Origin: an uncultured archaeon
Lineage (GTDB): Archaea; Asgardarchaeota; Thorarchaeia; Thorarchaeales; Thorarchaeaceae
Assembly: GCA_964558645.1 (NCBI GenBank)
Contig: CAZLEV010000002.1
Span: forward strand, 256,001-320,000
DNA: 64,000 nucleotides
Reading direction: 5' to 3'
The notes beneath the pieces were generated by a model. It did no database searches. It was not told the DNA's origin and worked only from the letters and a program-made list of their open reading frames with translations. Made by a program: the position numbers and the translations under genes. Below are positions 40,886 to 57,197 of the stretch, piece after piece. Every line of letters starts with the position of its first letter. The first letter of the stretch is position 1.

Positions 40886-42268
40886 ATGACTTTGCAACTC
40901 AGTCTGCCACAAATGAGTCTGGTTTCAGATGTGTTCTCGGCGCATAATGCAATTGGATACTCCGAGATTGTTTCTAAAGGACATGAAATCACCGTAATCA
41001 GAGAACTCGTAGAAGCCGGCATACTTGAAAAGCGTCTGAAACCAGAGATTCCTTGTCCTGCTTGCAATCGTACGATGGGGATTAGACTTGATATCGGATA
41101 TACATGCACAAGCTGTGGTCGAGTAATCCTACTCGAAGATGACCATCTTCTTGAGCACTCCACCTATCGAGCATCTGTACAACATCTTGTCAAAACCATG
41201 AGGAATCACCTAGTCAACGAAGGATTCAATCTCATCTCAACCGAAGAGAGCAGAATTGCAGGTGTGTATGCAATCGGTCGAATTCAGAGCGGTTCCGAGG
41301 GTGAACTTGATTTGGTGCTGCTTGCAAAACCTCTGAGTACAACGACCTTGTCCGCACTGCTAGGTGATGCAATTGCACATAGTACGAATACAGCGGTGTT
41401 TATCCCATCCAGTGAATCAGGTTTCGAACGCTCTCAAAGCGAGCTCATAGCCTTTCCCAAATTGCTCACAATGGATTTGCCCCTATTTGGTCAAGAGCCC
41501 ACAATGAGAAATCTGGAACGCTTCCTAAGCCACTCGGCCTTTCTCTCATCAATTATTGCATCCATTCGGGAGGTCACTGGGAGTGATCAGAGCCTGTTTA
41601 TGACACGGGATGAGGTTCAGTTCCTTGAAAATGCAAGAAGACTCTCCCAGACTGGGAGAAAGAGATTCGAACCGATAGCATTGCGACTGCTTCAACCTCT
41701 TGGGATAACCTCCCGGTTTAAGGCGGGAGGTTATGGCCCGGATGGTATGCTGTACCTCCCTGATGAGTTCTACATTGTTGATGCAAAATCAACCGAGTCC
41801 CAGTTTGAATTTAGAGTTGAGGAACGTGACAAAATTCATCGTTACATCCGTGCAATCGAAGACAATTGCGATTTCCTAGGAGAATATGGCTTCTCAGGAG
41901 AAATCATTGTCACCCCTTCCTTGAAGGAGCCGCACTCTGATACGTTGGATAAGGTAGAGGAGTACTTCTCAAAGAATCCGATTAATGGTCGCTTGGTCAT
42001 CATCTCCTCCGACGCGTTAATAGATTTGCATCGTAGCATTTTCGCTGACTTGGAGTATTTTCATCGGCTCCAACCAAAGCATCATGTCAAAGACCTTCTA
42101 AGTGGCCGACTGTCAGTTGATCCAACGGGTGATTCCCCCCAATTCCTGCATGTTGTCTACGTTGGCGAGGAAACAATGCAGAGATTCTATAGTTTGGTAT
42201 TAGATTCGCCGGCACTGAGCATGCGTAGCGTTTCATATCTCGACAGTTGGATTGAGAGTGTCTACTGA
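40886..42268 (+). CDS. Zn-ribbon plus PD-(D/E)XK restriction-like nuclease
   Basis: CPAC...CTSC; FE...GPDG....YIVDAKS nuclease motif. Confidence 0.75.
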   Translation: MTLQLSLPQMSLVSDVFSAHNAIGYSEIVSKGHEITVIRELVEAGILEKRLKPEIPCPACNRTMGIRLDIGYTCTSCGRVILLEDDHLLEHSTYRASVQHLVKTMRNHLVNEGFNLISTEESRIAGVYAIGRIQSGSEGELDLVLLAKPLSTTTLSALLGDAIAHSTNTAVFIPSSESGFERSQSELIAFPKLLTMDLPLFGQEPTMRNLERFLSHSAFLSSIIASIREVTGSDQSLFMTRDEVQFLENARRLSQTGRKRFEPIALRLLQPLGITSRFKAGGYGPDGMLYLPDEFYIVDAKSTESQFEFRVEERDKIHRYIRAIEDNCDFLGEYGFSGEIIVTPSLKEPHSDTLDKVEEYFSKNPINGRLVIISSDALIDLHRSIFADLEYFHRLQPKHHVKDLLSGRLSVDPTGDSPQFLHVVYVGEETMQRFYSLVLDSPALSMRSVSYLDSWIESVY

Positions 42269-42358
42269 CGGGTACTTCGATTTCAGCGTCCTCTTCCACA
42301 CGAGTTCCCAATGCCATAACAGTGGGCTCGCTTCGACAGCAAGAAGGGGGTTAGATGG

Positions 42359-42382
42359 CCCGGAATCGTCACGCCTAAGGAG
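42359..42382 (+). pseudogene. Degenerate uS19 3'-end remnant with internal deletion
   Basis: CCCGGAATC plus GTCACGCCTAAGGAG (11/15 to GTCCCGCTCAAGTAG); the following spacer resembles that at 55407-55432. Confidence 0.55.
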
Positions 42383-42407
42383 GACCATCTCTCAACGAGA
42401 CCATCTG

Positions 42408-43061
42408 TCAATTGCCCTTCTTCCTTCTCTTCTCACTGCGAGCTCGGTCAGCCGCCTCAATCTCCTCCCACTCCTTCATCTTCTCACGAACGCGTTGGGA
42501 TTGTCGTTCCATTGCGGCCTTGAACTCGGGTGTCTTTGATGCCTCATCCACGATTTCGTAGTACGCGATAGTTTCACCATCAGTGAATTCGTAGGAAGTC
42601 GTGACTACATCATATATATGGATGTGCTCTGTGCCCTCCGTGAAACCCTTCTCTTCTAACAGCTCCACTGCTTTATCCACTCTCATCCTCCCGAGATCTT
42701 CGGGGCCCGTGTTGCTGCGCAGGATTCTTATCAATGCCTTCTCCCGCTCCTTGAGGTTCTGGTAGTGTTCTGATCCCTCATCAGAGAGAATCTTAAGATG
42801 CCACACCGGCCTTCCGGGGTCAATATCAAACTTCGTCGCGTCTTCCGGAGAAACATGGTCCAGGGTCTTGTCAATGATCCAATCGTCCAGCAGTTTGATG
42901 ATCACTCTGCGAATGTCATCCTCTGTACAGTCCATGCCCTCATCCTCCGAGGACCCGAGTAGCAGGGCCACAGCCTTGTCCAAGGGAATTCCGTATTCCT
43001 CAGGATGAGATTCAATGAGGGCCATGAGGTTTTCCTTCACAATTAGAATATCACAGTTCAT
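42408..43061 (-). CDS. Gene X: hypothetical protein, possibly winged-helix, with a charged C-terminal helix
   Basis: 217 aa; overlaps the upstream stop (ATGA); its 3' end recurs four times in the island. Confidence 0.8.
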   Translation of the reverse strand: MNCDILIVKENLMALIESHPEEYGIPLDKAVALLLGSSEDEGMDCTEDDIRRVIIKLLDDWIIDKTLDHVSPEDATKFDIDPGRPVWHLKILSDEGSEHYQNLKEREKALIRILRSNTGPEDLGRMRVDKAVELLEEKGFTEGTEHIHIYDVVTTSYEFTDGETIAYYEIVDEASKTPEFKAAMERQSQRVREKMKEWEEIEAADRARSEKRRKKGN

Positions 43062-46000
43062 GATTCCTCACCCACAAGTTCGTCATAATAGCATGGGTAC
43101 CCTGTGCTTTTTAGCTCCTCTGCTATAGGTTTGCCTAGATCTGGTCTGCTTCTAACCCACTTCTTCACCTTCTCCAACTTCGTCACATCATTAGGGGGAC
43201 ACATGAGTACAAATCGCATAAGTTCCGTGATTCGAGAGGTACTGTACATCCATTCACTTGACACTCGGCCAGAGCCCTCATAGAATGTGATTTTTACCAG
43301 ATAGGGCTTCACTGCAACACCTATTGAGGCAAGTGCATCTATCTCATCCTGAAACAACTGCGGCTTATTCGTTTCAACTATCTCACGGAACTCGTTGCAT
43401 GTTGCAGACGTTTCAGCAACTTCCTTTAACTTTCCGCCCGTCATTTCCCACCTAGGCCCAAACCGCTCATCATCTTCTCGCGTGCCATTTTCTTTGATTA
43501 CTCCAATATGCTCGTCTTTGATACAGGATTCAAAATCGTACTCCTGTTTTGAGGGATCTGCAAGGGTAGTGGCACGAGTAACAGAAAACTTGGGTCTCTT
43601 TCCCAATTCATCTAGAGAAAATGAGCCATCTTCACAGAAGGTTTCCCTGAAGTAGCATGATTTGATCTTAACAGATCCATATCGGATGAACCTCGGAAGA
43701 CGAGTCGCCTGCATTCCCTTGTCACCAGGCGGAAATCCTCGTGAAACCAACAACCGCCCCAGCACACTGGTGAATCGTACCTGTCGCACGCCATTCTCCC
43801 TGATCGCGACATGGTAGTAGACATCGCCCAAGGGGCGGACACTCGCGATAACGATGTCCACGCGGTCAGGGTCGCACTCGGTATAGACGAAACCATTCTG
43901 TTTGAGTTCAACATGTCCATCCGACAGTCCAGTCCCGAACAACTTCGCGAAAAGAAGGTCCACAGCATATGGGTCCTTTGGGAACCGCGGATTCTCGATA
44001 CCACCGTGCTTGTGCCGACCGATCCGCCTGAGGCGCGACTCGACGGTGTCAGGACCAACGCCCAGCGTATCGAGGATGAGGGCAAGGGTGGCCCCCTTGA
44101 GATACGGGGCACGGGAATTGAGGTCAGCGTTCTGTGAAGACTTGAACACTGTTCGATTATAGTCAGTGATTTGCCCAATGAGCTTGCTGAAGTACCTGTC
44201 ACCTACCAGTCCAAGACGGTCGCGGGCAAGAGTAATGAGCGTCCGCTTATCCGAGCGCCTTCGGAACCTGAATATCTCCTCACGATACAGATGCATCCAG
44301 TTCTGCTCACGGGTGTCGTGCATGCGAAAATACAGGCGGTCGTTCACCACACCCAGCCTGAGCTGGCGCTCCGGGTCATCAGCAAGCCTAAGGCGAACAT
44401 TGAGCTCCTGCTCGATGGCCTCCCGCTCCCGCAGGGTGGCCTTGGCGATGCGCCGCAGCCAATTTGGCCCACCATAGCTGATATTCCGCATGTCAGCCCA
44501 CAACACTCGCCGTGGATGCTCCGCTGAGAGATAGACCTCCGCGATTGCCCGTGAGAGTTCATCCACCGTGGGTTTCTTGACTTCCCTGAGATGGCGTAGA
44601 TGCGCATAGACCACCTCAGGCGGTATGCGATGCTCGAAGGCCTCGGGGCTCAGGTTGCCCTCGTATTCGGCCCGTGAACTCTCCGCAGACCCGAGCATCT
44701 TGAAGATCCTTGGGGTCTTCTTCTCTGGAACCCAATACCGTACTCTTGCCGCCGTGGTTTTGAGGATCTTGGCGATCTCAACATAGGTCAGTTTCTCAAT
44801 GTCGCGACGGCTCTCCATCTCCTTGAGCCCGATGTATGCAAGGGCCGACCTGTTCAGGGTCTTGAAGTTGCGCTGGTCGCGGTAGAAGTTGTGGCGTCCC
44901 AGCATGACCTCGTACTCCAGACGGCAGGACGGAATCCATGATGAGTCCTCCCTCCGCTCGATGTCCGAAAAGCCATCCTGCTTAATGCCCACCCCGATGA
45001 GGGACGGTGGTGCACCCCTGAGCCAGTCGATAACCCGCTCCGAGGAAACGCCGAGGCGGTCAGCGAGCCTTTCCACCGACACTCTACGATAACGCTCCTC
45101 CCCGTCCACCATGACAAAGGGGATCTCGTGGTTGTGGGCGGCACGCATGACCTCGCCCCAGGCCTGAAACTCCGCGCACCAGAAGTCCACCGTGAAGCTC
45201 TGGGATATCTCCTGGTCGTCCTTTACCATGGTGATGATTCGCTCCATGCTACCCTCGTCCTCATGGAGAGTGCCGTATCGAAGCATCCGTGACCAGCGTC
45301 GCTCAATCTCTAGACTCCAGAGATTCCGGATGAGCTCGGGGGCGTTGTCATCATCAGCCAGTTCCTCGATGCGCTTGCGGTCGATACCCAGCTGTCGGGC
45401 CAGTTCGTCAAGATCGGGCTCGTTATCCGCCTCCTCGAGGGCCTTCTTGACACGGACATAGTCCTCCGCGTCCTTGAGTCGCTCCTCCAGCTCCTCCTCG
45501 TCCAGTGACTCCCTGTAAGCTGTGACATACCTTTTCAGGCTCTGGTTGCTCTTCAGGGACTCCTTGGCCTCCTCCCTGAGGCGCTCCTTCTCCTCCTCGG
45601 GGAGCTTCTCGAACTCCTCTTTCAGCAGGCGCCTCAGGCGTTCCTCGCGGGTCTCAGGGAACATTGAAGGGCGCAGAGGGCCACCATCAGGAAAGATACT
45701 GGAAAGCGTCGTATGAAGTCTCCCCCGTTCATCGGGAGTCTCTTCCTCTTGCACTGACTCCTCTCTCTCCCGGACATCCTCAGTGGGGGATCCGGTGTTC
45801 TCTTCCGAGATATCTTCAGAGGCGTTTGTGTCAGGCTCAACGTCAGATTCCTCTGACTGCTCAACATCCACCCTCGAGGGGCTCTCGGACTCGACCTCCT
45901 CAGAGAGCTCCACGTCCTCCGTGGTGTCTGATTCTTCCGTTTCAGACTCATCTTCTCCCTCCTCGTCGGTGGTCTCAACATCGGGCGGCTCTATCTCTTC

Positions 46001-46786
46001 GTCAGTCTCCTCCTTGACCCTCACATCCTCAGAGACATCGGGTTCACCGCTGTCCCCCATGGCCTCATGCCCGTGTTCGTCAAGAACCTCCTGGCTCGTG
46101 TCCGCAGCTGCGGTCTTGTCAACCTCTGACTCCTCAGCCGCCACCTCAGCGTCAGCGTTCTCCTCTGGTTCCTCCTCAGTCTCGATCTCTACGGTGACCG
46201 TGACCTGTTGATCCCCCGCGTTCTCCTCCACGCGGACCTCCCCTGATTCTGAGGAGGACATATCCGAAGAAGCAGACTCCTCCTCGGGTTCTTCCTCGAC
46301 CTGTTCTTTGTCTTCTTCTAACTCAAATTTTTCCCTCAGCTCAGACTGGTACTCCTCAGAGAGCCTCTCCGAAGCCTGTCGTATCTCGGCAGAGGTCTCC
46401 TCACTGGAGAGTCCGTCGCCAGTCCCGGGATTGTCCTTCTCTGGATTCCGCCTCTCCTCATGCTCCGCCTCGTTCTGGCGCCTGACCTCGTCCACCATCT
46501 CCCTGATACTCTGGTCAAACTCAGCACGCTCGCGCCGAGTCCGCTCTCTCGCCTCCTCCACTGTCTCGCGTATCTTGCGGTCGAACTCGGACTCCTCACT
46601 CGCCTTGGGAGGTTCATCTCCCTCAGTCCTCGCCTCTGTCCCCCCATCTGCATTTCGTTCGGCTGCCGTTCTTCTCCGGGCCTCGTCTACCAGCTCACGC
46701 ACACGACGCTCGAACTCCTCATCGTTCTCTATACCCTCTCTACTCTTTCGTGACCTCTTCTCCTCCCCGCCCTCACCGGCCATCAC
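43058..46786 (-). CDS. Giant acidic protein with multiple HTH motifs and a C-terminal LAGLIDADG-like endonuclease domain
   Basis: Glu-rich N-terminal half; three HTH-like motifs; LFGTGLSDGHV, FPPGDK..LPRFI and YFRETFCEDGSF match DOD blocks C, D and E. Confidence 0.75.
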   Translation of the reverse strand: MMAGEGGEEKRSRKSREGIENDEEFERRVRELVDEARRRTAAERNADGGTEARTEGDEPPKASEESEFDRKIRETVEEARERTRRERAEFDQSIREMVDEVRRQNEAEHEERRNPEKDNPGTGDGLSSEETSAEIRQASERLSEEYQSELREKFELEEDKEQVEEEPEEESASSDMSSSESGEVRVEENAGDQQVTVTVEIETEEEPEENADAEVAAEESEVDKTAAADTSQEVLDEHGHEAMGDSGEPDVSEDVRVKEETDEEIEPPDVETTDEEGEDESETEESDTTEDVELSEEVESESPSRVDVEQSEESDVEPDTNASEDISEENTGSPTEDVREREESVQEEETPDERGRLHTTLSSIFPDGGPLRPSMFPETREERLRRLLKEEFEKLPEEEKERLREEAKESLKSNQSLKRYVTAYRESLDEEELEERLKDAEDYVRVKKALEEADNEPDLDELARQLGIDRKRIEELADDDNAPELIRNLWSLEIERRWSRMLRYGTLHEDEGSMERIITMVKDDQEISQSFTVDFWCAEFQAWGEVMRAAHNHEIPFVMVDGEERYRRVSVERLADRLGVSSERVIDWLRGAPPSLIGVGIKQDGFSDIERREDSSWIPSCRLEYEVMLGRHNFYRDQRNFKTLNRSALAYIGLKEMESRRDIEKLTYVEIAKILKTTAARVRYWVPEKKTPRIFKMLGSAESSRAEYEGNLSPEAFEHRIPPEVVYAHLRHLREVKKPTVDELSRAIAEVYLSAEHPRRVLWADMRNISYGGPNWLRRIAKATLREREAIEQELNVRLRLADDPERQLRLGVVNDRLYFRMHDTREQNWMHLYREEIFRFRRRSDKRTLITLARDRLGLVGDRYFSKLIGQITDYNRTVFKSSQNADLNSRAPYLKGATLALILDTLGVGPDTVESRLRRIGRHKHGGIENPRFPKDPYAVDLLFAKLFGTGLSDGHVELKQNGFVYTECDPDRVDIVIASVRPLGDVYYHVAIRENGVRQVRFTSVLGRLLVSRGFPPGDKGMQATRLPRFIRYGSVKIKSCYFRETFCEDGSFSLDELGKRPKFSVTRATTLADPSKQEYDFESCIKDEHIGVIKENGTREDDERFGPRWEMTGGKLKEVAETSATCNEFREIVETNKPQLFQDEIDALASIGVAVKPYLVKITFYEGSGRVSSEWMYSTSRITELMRFVLMCPPNDVTKLEKVKKWVRSRPDLGKPIAEELKSTGYPCYYDELVGEES

Positions 46787-49700
46787 ACGTCGGCTCCATC
46801 AATGATGGCTGTGACCTGCTCGAGCACTCCTGCGTTCTCATGGTCCATGTGCTCGTCTGCCACCAGCCCCAGCAACACCTGTACAGCGGCTCTGCTACCG
46901 TCACCATGTCGTTCCGCGGCACTGAGGATCAGGTTCGCAATGCCTCTGCCGTCCCCTCGCTCCAGACACTCCCGGCAGTACTGAGCGAAGGTCTCGTTCG
47001 TCACTATCCGCTGCAACTCGCCACTGCCTCCAGCCACCTCAGGCTCCACGGTCTCCTCCCGTGGCTGCCGCTTCGGAGGATGCTTCAACCGGTCGATAAG
47101 TCCCTCAGGGAGGGCCTCCGAGGACTGGAACTCCGGGTGTTTCTGGATGATTTTCTGCATGTGTGACCGAAGAGTCTCAGGGGCAACTCTGTCCTGAACC
47201 CGAGTGGAAGGAACCATCTTCTCCAGAGGAAGGATACGGACGTTCTTCGGCTCACCCTCGTCCTGCAGATACACCACGGCCTCGCCTACTTCCATTCCCC
47301 CGATGTGCTCTATCTGTGCGTTGGTACATCGTGCATGACGACCCACCAGCTCGCGGTCCTCCTGGTGGGGAAGAGCGTGAATAACGAGGTTCACGATGAT
47401 CTTGAGGGCCTGTTCCACGAGCTCCGTGGGTGACTGGTCCAGAATAATCACGCCCAGGCCCGTTCCGCCCAGTACCCGCAGCATCTGGATGAAGGACCGA
47501 ACTGCCAGCGCGTGCGCATCTTCTCCCATACCCATCTTCCCAAGGAGATAGTGAGCCTCCTCCAACACCAGCAGGTTCGTGACCTGGTGCTCCGGATGTG
47601 CCAGTTTGTACTCTATGACCCCGGCAGTGAGCAGGCCCATGAGCAGGATTCGGTCACTGTCTGACAGCTCGGTCATGTCCACGATGGTCGGCTGGGACAG
47701 GAGGTCTTTGATGGTCACGCCAGTGGGGGTGTTATACATGTGGACCAACGAAGGCTTGCGGAGGATGCTCCTGACCCTGGTGGCTAGGATGCCGTGGAAG
47801 TTCTGGACCACCCGGTCCTCATATGTCAGGGACCGGCAGACATGCTCCACCGCATCAACAATGTCTGGCAGCAGGATTGGTCTACCTCCCTCACCGGTCT
47901 CACGGTCGTATCCGCAGATGTCGTAGACCGTGTGGATCAGGTCATCGATGTGTACGGCTATGACCTTGTCACTGGGCAACCACAGAGTCCAGACCTGCAC
48001 CAGCCGGTCGATCCACTTGTTCAGGCTGACACCCTCTGGAGGCCTCCACATGTTGAACGCCAGGTTCGCTATGTCATCTCTCCCACAGGTGAACACTCGG
48101 ACTTTCGAACGGATCTTGGTCAGGGGCCACCAGTCCTGACCCTTGGTGAGGGCAAGGATGAGGGGGTTGACGCCCTTGACCATGGACTGAGCACAGATAC
48201 TCAGCGCCGTGGTGGTCTTGCCTGACCGGGTAGCACCGAAGATTCCGAAGTGCATGTCGAAGTGTTCCAGCCTGGAGACCACCAGCTTCTTCTCAAGGAC
48301 GCGCCCGGCCTGGTCGATGGGGCTCCCGAAGAAGACCCATGGCAGGCGAGATGATGATGAGACCGTAGTCTTCTCTGTACGTCGCTGGGACTGTGGGTCT
48401 CGGCCTGGTTGCTCCTGACGAGTTCCCGAGGAGAACCGCTCCCGACTGGTGACCGGGATCTCCAGGTCCCTTCTTGGGATCGAAACGTATCCGGCAGCCT
48501 CATCTATGGTCAGGACGGACGACTTCTTGGCGGGGAACCCGAGCAGAGACCGCTTGACAGTGCGGTCCTTGGTGGTGTAATGAACATCGAACTCCTCGTG
48601 TTCGTCAGCCGGCCTGAGAGAGCCTATCAGGGCTCCAGCAAGGCGTTGCACTGCACGGTCTGCCTGCGCCACGTCACGATGCCACGCGGCCACAGTGACA
48701 CTCACCTTGCAGAGGCGCTCATTTGACAGCCGCCGGATACGACGCTCCAGTCGCTCGGCACGGAGCCGGGCCTCAGGGTCAACTATCGTCCTCGACTCCT
48801 GCTGGACTCCACTGAACAGTGTGCTCTTCTTTCTGGAGATAGTCTTCTCAGAGCGCTCCATCTCGTGCTGGTACTGGGATTCAAGGGACCGCAACTCCCT
48901 CTTCTTGCTGCTGAAGGGCTCAAGGGACACATGGTAGATACCGTTGGTCATGCCCTGGAGGACGCCGGCAAGGGCCTCCAGCGTGTCATGTCCCTTCCCC
49001 TCTGCATCCACGACCTTTGGCACACCGGTGATGGTGGCAGCAGCCGCCCGGTCTGTGGCGGGGGGTATGATGCCTGAGAACGAGGTGCATGCCTGGAACC
49101 TGAAGCCAACAAGGTTGTGCTGCAGGGCATCCATGAGGAGGGTGTGCTGGTGATCGAGCTGCGCCTCGTCCCTCGCCCATGTCAGAAAGAGGACCCTCGT
49201 CTTGGAGTGCAGCCGCTCGATACGAAGAGCAAACGGAACAGCATTCAGGGCGCGGATGACGCGGTGGAGCTGCACGGCGATGTGCTCGGAACTCCTGGTG
49301 GTGTCTCCGGGGAAGGCGTGACCATGAGGGACCTCGGTGAGTTCCACAGCCGCGATGCGTTCCTGTGACCTCCGCCACAGGTGGGTCAGGGATGAGCTGA
49401 CGGTACTGCGGACCGACCTAGTTGACGACTGGATTTGACCAGGCCTCCTGTCTGTGTCTTCTCTTCCGTCCAGGTACCACGGTACCAGTATCACGACGAA
49501 GAAGAGGACGGCCACCACGACCTCTAAGGCGCTGCCAATAAGGGGGATGCGTATCTGGGAGAGGATGACAATGATTGTGGCAACGATGCAGCCGGGTACG
49601 GTTGCGAACCCGACGATGAGAGAATAGAACCAGTAACGGATGTTCTTTGCGACCAAGAGAATGCCGGCCCCGACAAAGAACACGAGTCCGGAGAAGACGA

Positions 49701-49845
49701 GGCTGGGCCCGATGAAATAACGGGGGACGAAGGTCATGGAGATGAGGGCTGTGAATACCGCCGTGCAGGGGCCAATGGTCAGGAGCAGGAGCGCTATGAT
49801 CTTGAGAAACAGATTGACGGGTGAACCGGATGACTTATCGGCCAT
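46783..49845 (-). CDS. Membrane-anchored HerA/VirB4/FtsK-superfamily ATPase
   Basis: Four N-terminal TMs; Walker A GATRSGKT, Walker B LLVLEEAH, ILDQSP motif. Confidence 0.88.
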   Translation of the reverse strand: MADKSSGSPVNLFLKIIALLLLTIGPCTAVFTALISMTFVPRYFIGPSLVFSGLVFFVGAGILLVAKNIRYWFYSLIVGFATVPGCIVATIIVILSQIRIPLIGSALEVVVAVLFFVVILVPWYLDGREDTDRRPGQIQSSTRSVRSTVSSSLTHLWRRSQERIAAVELTEVPHGHAFPGDTTRSSEHIAVQLHRVIRALNAVPFALRIERLHSKTRVLFLTWARDEAQLDHQHTLLMDALQHNLVGFRFQACTSFSGIIPPATDRAAAATITGVPKVVDAEGKGHDTLEALAGVLQGMTNGIYHVSLEPFSSKKRELRSLESQYQHEMERSEKTISRKKSTLFSGVQQESRTIVDPEARLRAERLERRIRRLSNERLCKVSVTVAAWHRDVAQADRAVQRLAGALIGSLRPADEHEEFDVHYTTKDRTVKRSLLGFPAKKSSVLTIDEAAGYVSIPRRDLEIPVTSRERFSSGTRQEQPGRDPQSQRRTEKTTVSSSSRLPWVFFGSPIDQAGRVLEKKLVVSRLEHFDMHFGIFGATRSGKTTTALSICAQSMVKGVNPLILALTKGQDWWPLTKIRSKVRVFTCGRDDIANLAFNMWRPPEGVSLNKWIDRLVQVWTLWLPSDKVIAVHIDDLIHTVYDICGYDRETGEGGRPILLPDIVDAVEHVCRSLTYEDRVVQNFHGILATRVRSILRKPSLVHMYNTPTGVTIKDLLSQPTIVDMTELSDSDRILLMGLLTAGVIEYKLAHPEHQVTNLLVLEEAHYLLGKMGMGEDAHALAVRSFIQMLRVLGGTGLGVIILDQSPTELVEQALKIIVNLVIHALPHQEDRELVGRHARCTNAQIEHIGGMEVGEAVVYLQDEGEPKNVRILPLEKMVPSTRVQDRVAPETLRSHMQKIIQKHPEFQSSEALPEGLIDRLKHPPKRQPREETVEPEVAGGSGELQRIVTNETFAQYCRECLERGDGRGIANLILSAAERHGDGSRAAVQVLLGLVADEHMDHENAGVLEQVTAIIDGADV

Positions 49846-50094
49846 GGGGCAGTACTTCCTCCTTTCAGTGGTGAGATGTTGCGCCGGACCGCAACCTACC
49901 GAGTACAGTGATTGTCACCAAGTATCATAGGTGTTGTGTGATTGCTGTCTACAGCCTCATAGCCAAGATAGGGAGGCATCGGAAGTTATGAGAGTCTAGT
50001 GGTAACTAATACGTTGATACAGGCTTTTATGAAGCATATGAGTCATGGATAGCGGTCACTGATGTGGTCCATTGGACATTTGTATACAATGCCA

Positions 50095-50133
50095 GGGACG
50101 ACTAAGAGCCCTGACGCCGTTCCACTCAAGTAG
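50095..50133 (+). pseudogene. Degenerate uS19 3'-end copy
   Basis: GTTKSPDAVPLK* versus GATKSSAYVPLK*; ATTGGACAT (IGH) at 50071. Confidence 0.75.
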
Positions 50134-50141
50134 GAGGAATT

Positions 50142-50392
50142 CTATGCGAAATGGGTCATTATGCGCCATTTTTTTTTCTTCTTCGTGCTTACAAGACGAG
50201 CCCTATCTTCCGCCTCGAGCTCGGCATCCCGCGTCATTTTCTCCATCAATCGTTGGGACTGTCGCTCCATCTCAGCCTTCCACTCAGGGGTCTTTGAGAA
50301 CTCGTTCACAATTCCACAACAGGGTAACATCTCATCATTGACAGTATTAGACGAGTTTCAATAACACCCTCGATATGGATGTGTTTCCGTTA
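50142..50392 (-). pseudogene. 3' fragment of gene X
   Basis: HIHIEGVI...IVNEFSKTPEWKAEMERQSQRLMEKM...EAEDRAR versus HIHIYDVV...IVDEASKTPEFKAAMERQSQRVREKM...EAADRAR. Confidence 0.88.
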
Positions 50393-50466
50393 TATAGGAC
50401 GTGACTTTCCCATCGCTCAGAAAGAATAAATCGTAGTCTGTACATTGACTACACGGTGGTATTGGA

Positions 50467-51429
50467 ATGAAGAAGGGCTTCATTGTATTATATGCAATTC
50501 TCATTTTAGTAGTTTTCATGCAAGCGCAGGTAGATGCAACAGCCCAAGGGGACAGTGAGTTTGAAACGAAAGACTTCCTGCTTGATGATGGCACACTGAC
50601 TTATCGAGGCTGGATGCAGACCGAACAACCTAGCAGCTCCAATCCGTACGGAGTAGAAGGGTTGTTGAATGTGAGTATAACCGCGTACGCCAGTGTGAGA
50701 TCGCTCTCGGATGAAATTGTGAGGTTTGAGGTTTCGATGTACTTCAATGCACAAGAGTGCTATCAGAAGCGTCAGGGCACGGAGTACACGCCAGACAGCG
50801 ACGGAATACGATACTATGATAGTGAACTGGACTTCATTGGCACAGACGATATGCAGTATGAGTATGAGGGGAACGTGAACAAGAAGGACGGCAGGTACTC
50901 TCTCTTCCACGCGCCGCAGGGAGCATCATACTACTCGGTTGCTGCCTACTTCGACAGTGTCTTCGTCTATGAATGGATTGCAACGCTACCAGTGCCATTC
51001 CCGGAAGCAGGAGAACAGAACGGGTTCTTCGTCCATAATATCTCAGAATGGTCCATTGGAACAGATTACCATAAGGACTACACCGTATCCGGGGAGTCGA
51101 CCTATGGTTCCTATGAAACATGGGTCTTGGAGCCGAAGAGTAACCTAGCAGGCATGGATGTTTTTGAGGACAGGATAGAGTGGGAGAAAACCAGCGGCCT
51201 GTTTCTCCAACAAGACTCAAGATTCGTGGAAACCAATGAGTTCGATTTTGAGTACCATCTCAGAGCCACTGAGTATGAAGATATGATTCTGATACCAGCT
51301 CCAGCCGTTGTTGACCCCTTGATGACAGGTATTGGAGGATTTGCGGTGGTGGGAATCATTGCCATAGTTATTCTCTACAAAAGGCAGAAGGACAGCCATA
51401 GCCAAGTCGTGCTACCTCCCGGATTCTGA
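50467..51429 (+). CDS. Secreted, TM-anchored hypothetical protein
   Basis: Signal peptide, aromatic beta-rich body, C-terminal TM. Confidence 0.8.
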   Translation: MKKGFIVLYAILILVVFMQAQVDATAQGDSEFETKDFLLDDGTLTYRGWMQTEQPSSSNPYGVEGLLNVSITAYASVRSLSDEIVRFEVSMYFNAQECYQKRQGTEYTPDSDGIRYYDSELDFIGTDDMQYEYEGNVNKKDGRYSLFHAPQGASYYSVAAYFDSVFVYEWIATLPVPFPEAGEQNGFFVHNISEWSIGTDYHKDYTVSGESTYGSYETWVLEPKSNLAGMDVFEDRIEWEKTSGLFLQQDSRFVETNEFDFEYHLRATEYEDMILIPAPAVVDPLMTGIGGFAVVGIIAIVILYKRQKDSHSQVVLPPGF

Positions 51430-51545
51430 CCGCCTTATTCTGTATCGCGATGAAAACGAGGCGAATTCCTATATCAGAGAATTAGTTATATGCTAGTAGA
51501 AGGAAGGCAGGTTTGCTTGCGTCGCCATAGGATAGGGAGTTTCGT

Positions 51546-52541
51546 ATGAGAAAGCTAGCTGTAATCATATTTCTAGTCACTGTAATGCTACCTACTTCCT
51601 GTTATGCCGCAGGATCCTTTCATGTGGCAGACACGAGATTCGACTTTGACGAGAGCATATCTCCTGGAAGCTGGTATTGGATTCGCTCATCTAGTGTAGA
51701 ACCCGGAATGGGATTCTACGGAAGCGTGAAGGTCGACTCTGGCCAGGACCTAGACTTCTTCGTCTGTGATGTTGATGGCTATAACGATGTTCAGAACGGA
51801 AAGAGTACAACCCCTCTCCATCACTGGGGGGAAGATATCACGGGCACCACCGATTTCGAGTTCATTGCTCCTGATAATGGTGATCTGTATTGGTGCTTCA
51901 GTAATCACGACAGCGTCTTCACAACTATTCATATTCAGGGATACCTGAGTCGCGACCTGACAGCACCCGAACTTGACATAATAAGCCCCAATCAAGGTCA
52001 GACTGTGGATGGAACGGTGGTACTTGAAGCGACTGCCGAGGACAATCAGTTTGAAGTGGAACTGATGCGCGTCTATGTTGATGACAGCCTGAAGAAGACT
52101 GTCAGTTCTGACTCAATCACATACTACTGGGACTCGAAAGAGGTTGACGACGGCGCCCATACCGTCAAGTTCTACGTCAGTGACAACGTGAACAATGAGC
52201 GTGAGATCATCCGAACGGTATACGTGGACAATATTATCGAAGTAACTTCTACGACGGGGACGAGTTCAACGACCTCCACGACAGATTCAGGTTCAACACC
52301 AACTCAAGATCCAGGTGGCCAAGATCCAGCGAATACCTCCCCGATGCTTCTCTCCATGCCTCTCATCACTGGGGCATTCATCGTGTTAGGGATTGCTGGC
52401 GTTGGTTATGCGGTAAGTAGGAAGGAGAGCGCAACGTCGGCTCCGGTCTCTGAAGCCAAGGTTTTCGTCATCTGTCCGTACTGTGGTGCAAAAGTGGAAC
52501 AGGGAATCACGAAGTGCCATAAGTGCGGTGCAGAAATCTAG
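51546..52541 (+). CDS. Surface protein: beta-sandwich plus Ig-like domain, S/T linker, TM, cytoplasmic zinc ribbon
   Basis: D.TAP...IISP..G.TV.GTV, WDS..V.DG.HT, CPYCG...CHKCG. Confidence 0.85.
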   Translation: MRKLAVIIFLVTVMLPTSCYAAGSFHVADTRFDFDESISPGSWYWIRSSSVEPGMGFYGSVKVDSGQDLDFFVCDVDGYNDVQNGKSTTPLHHWGEDITGTTDFEFIAPDNGDLYWCFSNHDSVFTTIHIQGYLSRDLTAPELDIISPNQGQTVDGTVVLEATAEDNQFEVELMRVYVDDSLKKTVSSDSITYYWDSKEVDDGAHTVKFYVSDNVNNEREIIRTVYVDNIIEVTSTTGTSSTTSTTDSGSTPTQDPGGQDPANTSPMLLSMPLITGAFIVLGIAGVGYAVSRKESATSAPVSEAKVFVICPYCGAKVEQGITKCHKCGAEI

Positions 52542-52789
52542 ACCTCAAGAGTGTGTAGGGTGGGCGGCCGCCCAGAATCTGTCGCTCACTTACCCCCTCC
52601 CCCTTGATACTTTGCGACCTTCTCGGACCGGCTGCTAATTGAGTACAATATGCTAGGTTTTCTGAATGCCAAGATGAAAACTTACAGACTACCGGTGGGA
52701 ACGTAGTGATTCAAGAGGGCCAGAAGGGCAGCGACTTAGGTTTCCATTTCGCCTGAAAGACTGGTCTTCTGCCATGGACTTCCCTTCGT

Positions 52790-52923
52790 ATGTCCTTCTT
52801 TCTCTTCTTCTTCCGCTCAGTGCGTGCCTTATCCGCTGCATCGATCTCCTCCCACTCCTTCATCTTCTCAAGTACACGTTCAGACTGGCGTTCGGCTTCT
52901 CGCTTGTACTCCTCGGTCTTCAT
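52790..52923 (-). pseudogene. 3' fragment of gene X
   Basis: KTEEYKREAERQSERVLEKMKEWEEIDAADKARTERKKK versus KTPEFKAAMERQSQRVREKMKEWEEIEAADRARSEKRRK. Confidence 0.9.
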
Positions 52924-52926
52924 GCA

Positions 52927-53433
52927 CTATGGCTCTTCCGAACCGGATGAAGACCGATAATCGCTTCTGGCGTGCCACCTATGGGCAACGAAGTAGGTCA
53001 GTATCTGAAGAACAGGAAGCGGGAATGCATCCATACCAGCCCAACCATCCAGGCGGTATGAAAAGGCTACAAGATAGAACAACGGAATGATAAGAGTTCC
53101 AAGCAGTACGCCACGGATGGTCTTGCCCTTGCCCCAGGCACGACAAGACACCATCCATAGCAGGAAGACGCCCAGGGTCATTGCCATTGCGCTCCAAATG
53201 GTGTGCACGATTGTTGGCATCAGCAAAGAAAGACTTGAGAATGGGCCAGATAGGTAGCTTCCATAGGAGTAGCTGATTGTCCAGACTGTTGCTACTAATA
53301 TGATACTGGTCTGATGGTTGTCCACCAAAGATCTGAATTCAATACTCAATGTATGGGGAGCTAGAAGAAATATCAGCACCAAGATGAGGATCTGACGAGT
53401 TGAAATGCTGGAGCTTGATTCCATTTTTCCCAT
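52927..53433 (-). CDS. Hypothetical multi-TM protein
   Basis: About 5 TMs; start trimmed to MGKMES. Confidence 0.65.
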   Translation of the reverse strand: MGKMESSSSISTRQILILVLIFLLAPHTLSIEFRSLVDNHQTSIILVATVWTISYSYGSYLSGPFSSLSLLMPTIVHTIWSAMAMTLGVFLLWMVSCRAWGKGKTIRGVLLGTLIIPLFYLVAFSYRLDGWAGMDAFPLPVLQILTYFVAHRWHARSDYRSSSGSEEP

Positions 53434-53641
53434 CTCAATTGACCACCCTGCAATATCGTTGGAACAGAGAACTAGGAATGATCTCTCCCGAAGAACAATT
53501 GCTTTGTTTCTTCTTAAACTATCCTGCAAGTTTCTTATTGCGGGAGGGCAGGAGGCGATGGCCGAAATCTTCGACAAATCGAAGATGAGGATGTAAAGGG
53601 GTGCATTTCTAATAGCCTGACATGTTTGACCCAATCGCCCA

Positions 53642-54094
53642 CTACGAATCACGGGTTCTCCGGACAAGAAGTATGTATATCTCGATGCAGGAGGTGACAA
53701 CCCCGAACAACCCCAGCACAACCACCACAGCTGCGAGATCCATCGGGACATAGGGCATCATGACCAACACAAAGAGCAAGAGAAAGGTGGCGTAGAAGGA
53801 GAGGTATAGAACGAAACGCGGCACGAGTCTGTTGCCCAGGAGAAGGTAGAACCTGAGTTCGCCCAGAGGAACAAGTCGTACAACCGTGTATCGGCCCATG
53901 TCATCCCCAGCCACAAGGCCAAGGGACTCCAGCTTCTTCAGATGATACGATGCGAGGCTGACGCTGGACAGCTTCGTCCCGTCCTTCACCTCGCGACGAG
54001 TCCTGCCCTCGTTCTGTATGATTAGCCAGCGATAGACTTGGAGGGTCGTCCTATGGAGGTCAGGTTCTTTGTCGTCCGCCGTCATCCATGGCAT
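53642..54094 (-). CDS. Winged-helix regulator with C-terminal TM helices
   Basis: TTLQVY...REV.....LSS.SLA.YHL.KL...GLV....G.Y plus two TMs. Confidence 0.8.
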   Translation of the reverse strand: MPWMTADDKEPDLHRTTLQVYRWLIIQNEGRTRREVKDGTKLSSVSLASYHLKKLESLGLVAGDDMGRYTVVRLVPLGELRFYLLLGNRLVPRFVLYLSFYATFLLLFVLVMMPYVPMDLAAVVVVLGLFGVVTSCIEIYILLVRRTRDS

Positions 54095-54111
54095 CCCCAG
54101 ATTCCTGTGAG

Positions 54112-55239
54112 CTACTCCACTTCCATTTTCCTAACGGATCTCCTTAAAGCGTATTCTGTGGAGAGAGCCGCTACAACGGCAACTGTCATACTTGTCACCG
54201 TAAAGAGAATCCAGAGCGTTTCGCATGGACGCTCTAAGACTGCCAGGTCTAGGCTCTCACGGTACGGCACAGTCTGCACGACCTCGCCCGTGCGCGCATC
54301 GATGAGCACATCACATCGTGATACATCATCAGAAGTCACCACATACCAGACAAGGCGCATATGGTGTGGTGTGGTCTCTGCCTCAATCGTGTCGCTTACA
54401 GTGAGATTGTACATGACAACCCGTTTCCCAGTGACCTGCTTCGCTATGTCATACGCACTGAACTCATTTATCGTTGGACCCAGTGTGAAAACGCCCAAAT
54501 CGCGCCAGAGGTAATGGAATCCTGAGACCCGCCCGGTCAGGATATCCACTTCGATAAGGATGCCATCCCCACTGTACCCCAATGAGAAAGAAGGAGGGGA
54601 TTTGATGGAGATGCCATTAGAAACGTGTTCGAAAGCGAGGTGGTAGTTGCCGGATGTATGATGCTGAATCACTCCACAATAGCGTGCGTCCTTCGGCAAC
54701 GTGATATTGTTCAGATTCAAGAATGCCATTGCAGAGGCCTCTGCAGCAGCTGGTGCGATTGGCTGGGTCTGATTCTCTGAATCGCCTCTGAGAGCACCAC
54801 TTGTACACTCGAATCTGATCACCTCCCCCGAGACCGCGCTCACCTGAACCCATGTGCTCTTTTCATTGACGAAGAAGCGCCACGCCGGGATACGGGAGAC
54901 CTTACTGGCATATATGAGATGAAATGAGGACCAGTCCCATTCCGGGTAGTTCAACTGGAAGAACGATATTGCGTTCTTGCGGGCCTGGCTCTCGTTGACT
55001 AAGTAATACTCAGAACCGGGATCAACAACGATGAATGAACCGTTTTCGATGACCAGGTCCTGAAATCGGAACACACGTTCGGATTCATCGACATAACTCC
55101 AAAAGGCTGTTTCATCTATCGGTAGAGAGCCGATCTTTGTTTCTATTGGGAGGCTATTCGCTCCAACAAAGGCAATTGAACCCACAAGTATACCGAATAC
55201 GATGCAAGCCAGCCATGTCCCTCTCTGTATCATGAGCAA
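54112..55239 (-). CDS. PepSY-like domain secreted, TM-anchored protein
   Basis: VSAVSGEV, VDILTGRV and IDARTGEV repeats; signal peptide and C-terminal TM. Confidence 0.75.
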   Translation of the reverse strand: MLMIQRGTWLACIVFGILVGSIAFVGANSLPIETKIGSLPIDETAFWSYVDESERVFRFQDLVIENGSFIVVDPGSEYYLVNESQARKNAISFFQLNYPEWDWSSFHLIYASKVSRIPAWRFFVNEKSTWVQVSAVSGEVIRFECTSGALRGDSENQTQPIAPAAAEASAMAFLNLNNITLPKDARYCGVIQHHTSGNYHLAFEHVSNGISIKSPPSFSLGYSGDGILIEVDILTGRVSGFHYLWRDLGVFTLGPTINEFSAYDIAKQVTGKRVVMYNLTVSDTIEAETTPHHMRLVWYVVTSDDVSRCDVLIDARTGEVVQTVPYRESLDLAVLERPCETLWILFTVTSMTVAVVAALSTEYALRRSVRKMEVE

Positions 55240-55337
55240 ACCCCTGTCAGACCAGTGGATGAGCTATACTTATTCAGGACTAGATGATAAGACTACTTTT
55301 TTTCCTCTGATTCAGAAGAGAAATGGCTATGACCAAT

Positions 55338-55406
55338 CGTGAAGTTCGACATGGATCGCCCGGAATCGGTGCCACGAAGAGCTCCGCGTACGTCCCGCTC
55401 AAGTAG
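55338..55406 (+). pseudogene. Displaced uS19 3' end, best-preserved copy
   Basis: REVRHGSPGIGATKSSAYVPLK* identical in protein to 39012-39080; 15 of 23 codons differ synonymously. Confidence 0.95.
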
Positions 55407-55432
55407 AATCATCTTCGAGACGAGGGGCACCA

Positions 55433-55523
55433 TCAACCCTTTCTTCCTTTCTTTTTCTTCTGCTCAGCGCGAGCCCTGTCCTCTGCATCGATCTCCTACC
55501 ACTCCCTCATCTTCCCCTCTCAC
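55433..55523 (-). pseudogene. 3' fragment of gene X with an internal stop
   Basis: KMREW*EIDAEDRARAEQKKKKGRKG*. Confidence 0.88.
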
Positions 55524-55694
55524 TCCCTATTCCAGTGTTGTATCAGAATCTACTGGCGCCCGAAATCGGCGTTATTCTGACACAACGATTTCCATGCCAG
55601 TTTTTGTTGGAGAAGAGTATAGAATACATATCACAAGCCTCTTATATTATTCCGAATTAACTATTGTTCACTACATACACTAATAGGTGATTTA

Positions 55695-56099
55695 TTGATG
55701 AACCGAACAAAATCCCTTCTGGCTATGGCTATGATCATGGTTTTCCTCAGCATAAGTTCTGTTGGAGCCGTGACCATCGAAGATACAGCAACTCTAACTG
55801 TAAAGCATCGAATTCCCGGTACTGCAGCAGGTCAAATCCTGCTTGGTGACCCATTCGCTCTGCCTTTTGAGCTACCAGTGGACGTCTACGTTAATGGTGA
55901 ACTTGCCTTTACTTTCTCTTTCAGAGACACGGTAGGTCCCATCGAATTGCCGGCAGGTACATACACCGTAGAGGTAAAACTCGCGGGTACTGACATCACA
56001 GTCATCGGTCCCCTTGACCTAACTCTTGAAGCTGGTGATGATGTCACCGCAGTAGCTGTCCTGCAAGGACGACGAGGTCCAACATTACTCCTTGAGTAG
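55695..56099 (+). CDS. Secreted DUF4397-like protein
   Basis: V.H.IPG, PVDVYVNG, LPAGTYTVEV. Confidence 0.75.
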   Translation: MMNRTKSLLAMAMIMVFLSISSVGAVTIEDTATLTVKHRIPGTAAGQILLGDPFALPFELPVDVYVNGELAFTFSFRDTVGPIELPAGTYTVEVKLAGTDITVIGPLDLTLEAGDDVTAVAVLQGRRGPTLLLE

Positions 56100-56244
56100 A
56101 TTTTTGTTTCCGATGTCAGAGAGGCTAATATTTTAGCCTCATCCTTCTTTTCCTTTTTCTCTTCCAAGGAATTTCTCGAGTGTGCTTCTCGCCTGTACCC
56201 TCCCAATAGTGACGACTTAGGCTCTATTGTCGGCTCAGGAGAGC

Positions 56245-56400
56245 GATGAAGAGAACATCTGATTGGACTCCGAGTCGGCCAAAGAGGAGCTGTTGACTCT
56301 GCTGGATTCCTTTCCGGATGAACGGCTGGAGGGCATCGAGGTTTCGCGAGAAGTCAATGATCCAGAGAACGAGGGGCCGAAACTCATCCTTCCGGTTTAG
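56245..56400 (+). pseudogene. C-terminal remnant of an SRAP (YedK/HMCES-like) protein
   Basis: EENI*LD....ELL.LL..FPDE.L....VSREVNDPENEGPKLI resembles the SRAP C-terminus with the Trp of WLD read as TGA. Confidence 0.6.
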
Positions 56401-56496
56401 GATAGGCCTCATCATAGACAGTCTACCACTGAGCCAGACATCCGGAGCAGATGCATTCAAATCCACGAAAACCAGTGCATTCAGAGGTGTGAGGTA

Positions 56497-57081
56497 GTGA
56501 ATGCCGAGAGAGTATCATCCCAGAGTCGGCGATTTGTCCCTCCCGTAACAGGCCTATGGCCCGGCGAGAGGATAGTCTGGATCCGAAGACCAGGAACCGG
56601 GTTCTGGATAACGTGTTTTGGGATTTTGTTGGTATTAAGCATTATTTCGCTCCCCTTCACGATTGCGTCCGATCTTGGTCTCTCAGGAGCAGCTCCCCCG
56701 CTCTTTGCGGCAGTGGGTGGTATTGTCATCTTCATGTACTTCTATATCGTGAGAAGACGTACAAGATACTACCTGACAGATGAGCGGATAATCGAGGTCC
56801 GTGGCGACCGTATCGTCAAGGAGATGTCATTGGAGCGTTTCGCTGGAAGACCCATGGGCCAGTTTTTGGAGTCACGTGTCACACATACTGTCAACAACAT
56901 GCCGATGTATGACATTCGGATATATGACCCTCTCTCAGATGAGACCATGGTGCTCAAGAGCCTGGATGGCTTCTCTGCATCGTGGCTAGAGGAGATTGGG
57001 AAGATACGGGAGTGCCGTTATTGTGGTCTTGAAAATGTGGCCATAGCGGGCAAGTGTAAGAACTGTGGAGCGGTGCTGTAA
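56497..57081 (+). CDS. Membrane protein with bacterial PH-like domain and zinc ribbon
   Basis: L.PGE.I.W..RP, two TMs, T.Y.LTD.RII, CRYCG..CKNCG. Confidence 0.75.
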   Translation: MNAERVSSQSRRFVPPVTGLWPGERIVWIRRPGTGFWITCFGILLVLSIISLPFTIASDLGLSGAAPPLFAAVGGIVIFMYFYIVRRRTRYYLTDERIIEVRGDRIVKEMSLERFAGRPMGQFLESRVTHTVNNMPMYDIRIYDPLSDETMVLKSLDGFSASWLEEIGKIRECRYCGLENVAIAGKCKNCGAVL

Positions 57082-57161
57082 CCTATACAGTACAAGGGGA
57101 GTATTTTCTCTAGGTCAACTGACGTGCTAGAAGGAGAATAGAGAAGAACGGGATAAAAGAG

Positions 57162-57197
57162 GCCTCCACCAAAGCTACGTACGCGCCACTCAAGTAA
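57162..57197 (+). pseudogene. Degenerate uS19 3'-end copy at the distal island boundary
   Basis: ASTKATYAPLK* versus GATKSSAYVPLK*. Confidence 0.6.

Follow-up and report, generated by a model that had tools for sequence, protein, structure and literature searches.

A composite island at the uS19 gene of Thorarchaeota carries a substitute 3′ gene end and a predicted LAGLIDADG endonuclease

Homing elements with a spare gene end

Homing elements that bring along a spare 3′ end for the gene they invade have been described in fungal mitochondria and in two genera of yeast, and it was from yeast elements of the WHO type that the mating-type switching nuclease HO arose. In Torulaspora and Lachancea, WHO elements reside at FBA1. 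The donor's nuclease cleaves the sensitive host gene and the donor chromosome templates the repair, with the 3′ part of the recipient gene pairing with the old fragment behind the element; repetition of the process results in clusters (PMC7282813; bioRxiv 10.64898/2026.08.13.744650). The mORFs with a C-terminal duplication, described for atp6 of Allomyces and for atp6, atp9, cox2 and nad3 of Glomus, have native and inserted C-termini that are 64–81% identical as DNA and almost the same as protein (PMC3630166).

The locus reported here lies in a window of 64,000 nucleotides, the whole stretch of DNA that was analysed, from a Thorarchaeota (Asgard) genome (G000) that is a 3.6-Mb metagenome bin with 6% contamination. 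Two other species of its genus are designated G001 and G002. In the window, two copies of the uS19 ribosomal protein gene's 3′ end, which we call tails, are separated by 16.3 kb of DNA of variable composition (the island, about 38993–55328). As with WHO, an essential host gene is closely followed downstream by a free-standing gene for a predicted LAGLIDADG endonuclease; the element supplies an alternative 3′ part, and the old part is displaced downstream, its proposed role there being that of second homology arm. In both cases the fragments start at about one position and the element-borne 3′ ends are highly diverse; the tandem WHO clusters reach 9 units, and the arrays of tails in Thorarchaeota are comparable in kind. 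In contrast to WHO, the island has an archaeal host and targets a ribosomal protein gene. WHO replaces half of its gene, whereas the island replaces only about 30 codons, and where WHO has a zinc finger the island has HTH segments, with the nuclease forming the C-terminal domain of a 1242-aa protein. The island also travels with a second protein (X), a membrane ATPase and cargo cassettes, and its host has no meiosis to unite alleles. We propose that the island element works in a manner similar to WHO, but its nuclease is not a member of the WHO/HO family by sequence.

The mORFs are alike in that an endonuclease ORF was inserted together with a foreign C-terminal part and the native C-terminus was left downstream (the two tails of the island are 72% identical in DNA), and in that the native part matches close relatives lacking the insertion. 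They differ in that they are single insertions in organelle genomes, with small endonuclease ORFs and neither accessory genes nor cargo. With intein and intron homing (PI-SceI/VDE, I-DmoI, I-Tsp061I) the island shares the fold of the nuclease domain and the principle that the empty allele of a conserved essential gene is cleaved and then restored from the occupied one; however, it has no RNA or protein splicing, and it is the spare end that keeps the host gene whole. Ordered stacks of cassettes are known from integrons, including those reported in Archaea. The one-sided stack of mostly single-gene cassettes at a fixed site, with a recurring boundary site, resembles such arrangements, but here there is no IntI and there are no attC hairpins, and the recurring site is the coding end of uS19, which is kept as protein. 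In islands in tRNA and ribosomal protein genes and in ICEs the 3′ end is likewise regenerated, the old end is found at the distal junction and sites are occupied in tandem; these, however, carry an integrase together with an identical att core, neither of which was found in the uS19 island. Our literature search, the coverage of which was incomplete, returned the WHO elements and the mORFs and no such arrays in Asgard or other archaea. The archaeal host, the ribosomal protein target, the giant multi-domain nuclease with its two partner genes and the stacking of cargo distinguish the element from known homing elements.

The working and the displaced end of uS19

Searching the whole genome for uS19 gave one full copy and one tail match. 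The full copy is the working gene (38670..39080, + strand; 136 aa; Pfam Ribosomal_S19, E 3e-29), which stands isolated behind a TPR gene and a phosphoglucomutase gene in an upstream order that is the same across the family. This order reads phosphoglucomutase (− strand), TPR protein, uS19. In the window (region 36560–39080), uS19 is situated away from the ribosomal protein operon, and uL22 is found on another contig (G000 contig C4, 224629–225027). A free-standing uS19 gene with nothing co-transcribed behind it may have an end that is tolerant of insertions.

The working tail (39012–39080) and the displaced tail (55338–55406) are translated into the same peptide, REVRHGSPGIGATKSSAYVPLK, of 22 residues followed by a stop codon. 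When compared codon by codon they are unlike at 15 of 23 positions, the stop (TAA/TAG) counted, and no residue is altered. At the DNA level 19 of the 69 bases are unlike and 50 are identical (72%), with a longest identical run of 8 bases; the sense part alone accounts for 18 base changes in 66 bases. The replacements include a serine switch (AGC/TCG) and two arginine switches (AGA/CGT and AGG/CGA), each of which takes two or three mutational steps. When 18 random substitutions were placed in the 66 sense bases by simulation, the peptide was retained in 0 of 300,000 trials. Retention of the peptide despite 18 changes means that both copies diverged almost wholly while they were working coding sequence. 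GC3 was 0.68 in codons 1–97 of the gene and 0.39 in codons 98–137 (Fisher p = 0.003), and it was 0.63 in the displaced copy. An earlier reading of the sequence alone had described the tails as protein-identical and silently recoded at 15 of 23 codons, and the gene as passing from G/C-ending to A/T-ending codons with the displaced copy in the G/C style; translation and codon alignment confirmed the former and the GC3 values the latter. The homology of the displaced copy extends leftwards beyond 55338, to about 55320–55329 (E109...M112 T113 N114), and we annotated the displaced native end at 55328..55406 (+ strand), where it is peptide-perfect from T113.

The two alleles are most unlike close to the junction. 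In codons 108–115 about 15 of 24 bases differ together with 2 residues (SMTN vs SPTG), and beyond this point the differences are silent only. Divergence of this kind near the junction, with two residue changes, is what target immunity would need, and the island does encode a nuclease, with a predicted LAGLIDADG fold, that recoding of the tail could evade. The target site of a LAGLIDADG nuclease is typically about 20–30 bp. With a site of that length and a junction at codons 108–112, most of the recoded codons 115–137 fall outside the target; for these, the recoding is accounted for equally well if the element-borne tail evolved separately for a long time under selection on the protein. The divergence over codons 115–137 is as deep as that between genera. 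As the sequence-only reading proposed, the low identity of the direct repeats may also reduce loss of the island through recombination.

Contigs of three public sequencing runs were placed on positions 37500–57000 of the window at 90% likeness: the source run, a marine-sediment run (X2) and a freshwater-sediment run (X3), the latter two being independent of the source run. Runs X4–X8 contained little or none of this stretch and were left out of the evidence. Contigs of the source run covered 37500–46073 and 46178–55372, and one X2 contig (54316–56826) was identical to the window from the end of the island through the 55338 tail into the right flank; the arrangement is therefore not an artefact of assembly. 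In X3, one contig (depth 45) joined 38992 to 55328 through 9 other bases and a second (depth 19) joined 38996 to 55350 through 27 other bases. Both joints were in frame and gave ordinary intact uS19 ends (…GEFSMTNREVRHG… and …GELSITNKQVRHG…). These joints are island-free alleles in which the working tail is of the 55338 type, known here from short X3 contigs placed at 90% likeness, and the site is polymorphic, occupied in the window and empty in X3. The nine joint bases restore codons 109–111, which are garbled in the displaced remnant of the window, so that the island-free allele is not simply the product of excision from a genome like G000.

Two proposals of the sequence-only reading, that the 3′ end of the working uS19 is imported, which makes the gene a chimera, and that the 55338 copy is the original, are borne out by these alleles, in which the uS19 body runs into a 55338-type tail. 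The same reading had named a 38961–39080-type tail in island-free relatives as evidence against it; X3 carries the 55338 type and not the 39012 type. Its breakpoint at about 38960, in contrast, did not hold. An X3 island-free contig was at least 90% like the window across the 54 bases of 38939–38992, which include codons 98–108, and this places the junction near codons 108–112 and led us to reject a breakpoint at 38960 drawn from GC3. The switch in codon style precedes the junction by about 30 bases and so does not belong to this insertion.

The relatives hold related structures. In G001 the corresponding island is 1.9 kb long and consists of a homologue of X and a nuclease gene reduced to a stub. 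A decayed copy of the displaced tail comes next, and then the right flank known from the window (82.6% identity over 55343–55496); the working tail of G001 is of the island type. The working tail of G000 is 88% identical to that of G002 and 81% identical to that of G001, the three tails group together, and their match continues for 50–64 bases past the stop codon. Identity between G001 and G000 is 62% in codons 98–112 and 87% upstream, a drop which hints at older conversion tracts of varying length. Among the species-representative genomes none had a displaced-type tail in its working gene, the nearest tail being 76% identical. The exact uS19 protein was absent from the protein collection, in which the nearest uS19 was 90% identical and of the G002 type, and pattern scans of metagenomes for the displaced tail and for the right flank gave no matches. 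Taking the insertion and the identity of the native tail jointly, we hold both with high confidence.

The nuclease module and the arrays of tails

The island begins with the substitute 3′ end of uS19 (38993..39144, + strand), which comprises codons from about 108 to 137 with the stop and a 64-base spacer; its left limit is set by the island-free contigs, which diverge at 38992 and 38996. The spacer is common to the islands of G001 and G002, which align with the window to 39144 and 39131, respectively, and then diverge. It is followed by a proximal cargo unit (39145..42353, + strand) with a GC of 0.43–0.48, below that of the neighbouring DNA, that is absent from G002, where the spacer leads directly into the gene for the 217-aa protein X. 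The unit holds an ORF of 396 aa without a family (39695–40885, + strand) and an ORF of 460 aa (40886–42268, + strand) with zinc-ribbon-like cysteines and a faint match to the FokI cleavage domain (E 0.0016), and this pair (39695–42268) may be defence or restriction cargo. At 42354..42375 (+ strand) there is a possible, very decayed tail remnant (GATGGCCCGGAATCG...), a weak candidate identified by eye, which has 10 bases (CCCGGAATCG) in common with the displaced tail and adjoins the stop codon of the gene for X.

Three genes on the − strand make up the nuclease module. Protein X (42408..43061; 217 aa) is acidic with a basic C-terminus, is encoded convergently with uS19 and gave no family match. 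The second gene (43058..46786) encodes the 1242-aa protein, which is acidic in its N-terminal half, contains HTH segments and ends in a double-motif LAGLIDADG domain (43061–44149). The third (46783..49845) encodes a HerA/FtsK-like ATPase of 1020 aa with Walker A motif GATRSGKT at residue 537. About four membrane helices are found in the first 130 residues of the ATPase, and a weak match to Ced-type DNA-translocating ATPases (E 2e-7) is confined to its Walker A region; from these features, a role of the protein in moving DNA between cells is conceivable.

The assignment of the C-terminal domain was made through its motifs and its fold. Searches of the 1242-aa protein with Pfam, NCBIfam and PADLOC gave HTH matches only and no LAGLIDADG model, and the Pfam models LAGLIDADG_1, LAGLIDADG_2 and LAGLIDADG_3 did not match it even at E values up to 10. 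Across the large ORFs of the island as a whole, Pfam, NCBIfam and PADLOC likewise yielded HTH and HerA-like matches and no model of an integrase or of LAGLIDADG. Homology to the WHO/HO type, an intein-derived LAGLIDADG with a zinc finger, was not found with Pfam or NCBIfam. A word-based protein search returned 8 database homologues, none of them annotated and none with a precomputed Pfam hit. The protein contains the motifs LFGTGLSDGHV and YFRETFCEDGSF (LSDGHV, CEDGSF), and its last 363 residues have homologues, often several in one genome, among the Thorarchaeota (51 of 86 genomes). Within an alignment of 32 homologues, S76 and D77 of the first motif (SDG) were conserved in at least 90%, and the second motif, (E/D)(D/E)G, was acidic in all 32. 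An AlphaFold model of the domain, made from this 32-sequence alignment, which had been built from genome hits, reached pLDDT 90.5 and pTM 0.88; the single-sequence prediction of the same domain gave pLDDT 36. The model agrees with the LAGLIDADG fold, which is defined by two helices at a pseudo-dimer interface, each followed by a DNA-binding saddle of beta-sheet. The top Foldseek matches in the PDB were all of this fold (E 1.6e-7 to 1e-3, probability 0.93–1.0), with I-Tsp061I, PI-SceI, the TliVMA intein endonuclease, I-DmoI, I-OnuI and I-SceI at probability 1.0. PI-SceI was among the best, at 10–12% identity, and the non-catalytic WhiA regulators were also among the matches; to our knowledge, WhiA lacks the motif acids that are conserved in the Thorarchaeota homologues. 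By fold and motifs, the domain is a predicted monomeric LAGLIDADG endonuclease with two motifs.

The nuclease is linked to uS19 well beyond this genome. In its closest clade (37–41% identity) the gene is convergent to the working uS19 tail in G096, G069, G057, G062, G078, G065 and G002, usually with a homologue of X in between, and G001 has a nuclease remnant at uS19; the uS19-linked clade covers at least three genera. The order uS19, substitute tail, (cargo), X, nuclease is found in the window and equally in G002, G069, G057, G065 and G096. Such linkage across three genera at low protein identity indicates that the association of nuclease and uS19 is old and specific. Homologues of X (34–67% identity) lie between nuclease and uS19 in G002, G069, G057 and G065 and adjoin the nuclease in G095 and G058. 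More distant members of the nuclease family are located elsewhere in the genomes. In G000 a second trio is present on the contig that also bears the window (C2, region 106000–120000, locus L167, 6641–13999), with an X-like protein of 193 aa, a nuclease homologue of 1160 aa and an ORF of at least 1116 aa that has the size of the ATPase; neither a tRNA gene nor an evident end of a target gene was seen beside it. Three further paralogues of the nuclease domain are located in G000 at C2:405423, C2:410810 and C10:21569.

Beyond the module, a decayed tail remnant with internal deletions (WSIGHLYTMPGTTKSPDAVPLK and a stop; 50065..50133, + strand) is homologous from codon 103, and behind it lies a further remnant (50142..50385), made up of spacer and the 3′ end of an X-family gene, which is 75% identical to the sequence behind the tail of G002. 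The distal cargo unit (50386..55327) is missing in some strains, as seen from an X3 contig that joins 50343 to 55457. It contains ORFs at 50467–51429, at 51546–52541 (Ig-like domain and zinc ribbon) and, on the − strand, at 52927–53751, at 53642–54094 (HTH) and at 54112–55239 (PepSY). To the right of the displaced tail, the native flank (55407..55496, + strand) is common to G001 and resembles the spacer behind every other copy of the tail, and an older decayed remnant (…STKATYAPLK and a stop) lies at 57132..57197 (+ strand). The DUF4397 gene of the right flank (55695–56099) is not conserved in relatives and hence this flank provides no synteny anchor.

Strains also differ within the module. 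At about 43.9 kb, inside the nuclease gene (region 43600–44200), GC falls from 0.58 to 0.47. In an abundant X3 strain the stop of the working tail (39079) was joined to 44496, and 44496–50343 was shared with the window at 90–98%; X and the LAGLIDADG domain are thus replaced or more than 10% diverged in this strain, and the N-terminal half of the nuclease protein and the ATPase are shared. Together with the drop in GC, this pattern looks like a modular swap of the specificity domain along with the tail. The joint of 50343 to 55457 indicates that repeats of the array recombine, or are filled differently, between strains.

Similar arrangements were observed throughout the Thorarchaeota. A 40-residue tail used as query matched in 73 genomes, about half of which had extra tails, in arrays of up to 7–8 spaced by 0.7–5 kb. 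All 50 remnants examined were 3′ ends oriented like the gene. Their starts, called at the peptide level since boundaries of DNA identity are unreliable under high silent divergence, fell in two clusters and not one, at codons 106–112 (29/50) and at codons 115–118 (19/50). In 40 pairs of a remnant and the working tail of the same genome, pS was 0.63 and pN 0.055, from which it follows that each tail diverged while in use as coding sequence and that silent recoding with a kept peptide is the rule in the family and not a peculiarity of the window. The units between tails mostly consist of one or two genes of varied function, among them genes for LRR and beta-helix surface proteins, MFS transporters, TPR proteins, hydrolases and acetyl- and methyltransferases. 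Nuclease genes or their stubs, and likewise the intact ones, were seen only in the unit next to the working uS19. In the window the inner remnants (50065 and about 42354) are more decayed than the outermost copy at 55338.

In the longest arrays, seven remnants are packed into about 15 kb (L037, G081:C84, 1193–15967; L038, G069:C188, 1895–15124). The copies in the array of G081 hardly differ in the last 20 bases of the tail (AGCAGCGCTTACGTGCCTCT), and the preceding codons vary silently; no nuclease gene was found in this array. On G083:C1 (CP070658) two full uS19 genes, at 1263512–1263631 and 1318872–1318991, lie 55 kb apart in opposite orientation, which is either a real duplication or inversion at this locus or a scaffolding artefact.

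Homing and its alternatives

The best reading of these observations, and in our judgement a probable one, is a homing element of the WHO/mORF kind. A composite island of about 16.3 kb (about 38993–55327), built around the free-standing LAGLIDADG module of X, the 1242-aa nuclease and the membrane ATPase, was copied into uS19 near codons 108–112. Its gene-proximal end is the substitute end of uS19, and the old end was displaced to the far side; since the substitute end encodes the same protein, the essential gene stays whole. We infer that the nuclease cuts the naive uS19 allele near codons 108–112, and that the imported, recoded tail is immune to it and is not a substrate. The break would be repaired from the element-bearing copy, with the uS19 body as the left homology arm and the fragment of the old tail at the far end as the right arm. 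Repeated rounds, with cargo between the two tails, could then build the tail arrays of the family. On the homing model the pristine 55338 copy implies a recent event, and an extra assumption is needed for the decayed inner remnants, namely that a ready-made composite array was copied from the donor in one step. The island-free X3 alleles and the decayed orthologous remnant in G001 fit recent, independent invasions. Against homing, most distal cassettes in other genera are surface, transporter or enzyme genes with no remnant of a nuclease, and many units may therefore move or accumulate in another way. It also counts against homing that the sequence libraries fail to recognise the nuclease domain, that its fold is likewise that of the non-catalytic WhiA, that the greater part of the recoded codons falls outside a target of LAGLIDADG size, and that the island-free allele is known from short contigs.

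Such nuclease-free cassettes are an argument for traffic that does not depend on the nuclease at all, in which circles of cargo and one tail loop out by homologous recombination between tail repeats and re-enter the working tail by a single crossover of the Campbell type, the nuclease module being mere cargo. The X3 joint of 50343 to 55457 does resemble a deletion or insertion between homologous post-tail repeats, and the repeat unit, a tail with the next 100 or so bases, has a length that suffices for homologous recombination in archaea. However, tails within one array are only 67–88% identical, with identical runs of about 8 bases in the window, and would be a poor substrate; moreover, such traffic explains neither the place of one nuclease clade beside uS19 in three genera nor the common start codons of the remnants. 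We consider it unlikely as an account of the locus. Homing would also have to be set against integration by a tyrosine or serine recombinase, encoded elsewhere or lost, with attB in the uS19 3′ end and attP accompanied by the replacement end. Precedents for this are islands in tRNA genes and the streptococcal ICEs in ribosomal protein genes, and the outward architecture would be the same, with the 3′ end replaced, the old end at the far side and tandem arrays. Recombinase or integrase genes were nevertheless not found in the 17 ORFs of the island and its flanks, in the related islands or in 72 cassette ORFs. The whole genome of G000 contains one PF00589 match, which might be taken in favour of integration, but this sole integrase gene is on contig C1 and not on the contig of the island. 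No identical att core longer than 8 bases is shared by the two junctions, and the junction positions differ among remnants. Integration of this type appears quite improbable.

Two copies of one peptide 16 kb apart in a metagenome bin with 6% contamination could reflect a gene end that was duplicated locally and then changed by drift or gene conversion, without any import, or the mis-assembly of two strains. We give these explanations almost no credence. Eighteen silent changes and no replacement cannot arise in a dead copy, and the working tail clusters with those of the island type in G001 and G002; as for mis-assembly, both junctions were reproduced by independent runs and a third run shows the empty site.

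Returning to homing, we tentatively put forward a wider reading, for which the odds are somewhat below even, in which the island is a prokaryotic counterpart of WHO that has turned into a platform for gene capture. A LAGLIDADG lineage specific to the uS19 end would repeatedly replace that end, and genes lying between the substitute and the old tail would be copied along, so that surface, transporter and defence cassettes stack up. An arms race between nuclease and target would be visible as the near-saturated silent recoding and as swaps of tail, X and nuclease-domain modules. The membrane ATPase of the element might move DNA between cells and bring donor and recipient DNA together in organisms without meiosis.

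On the homing reading, the third category of homing elements, those with a spare 3′ end, would extend to the chromosomes of prokaryotes, where it would act at a ribosomal protein gene in many genomes of the family and in at least three genera. It predicts a new set of nucleases with long sites and known natural targets. The 3′ end of uS19, a standard phylogenetic marker, is mosaic in this lineage and calls for caution. For the Thorarchaeota themselves, the island offers an explanation without an integrase for the hypervariable regions behind conserved genes, and a route by which accessory genes can accumulate.
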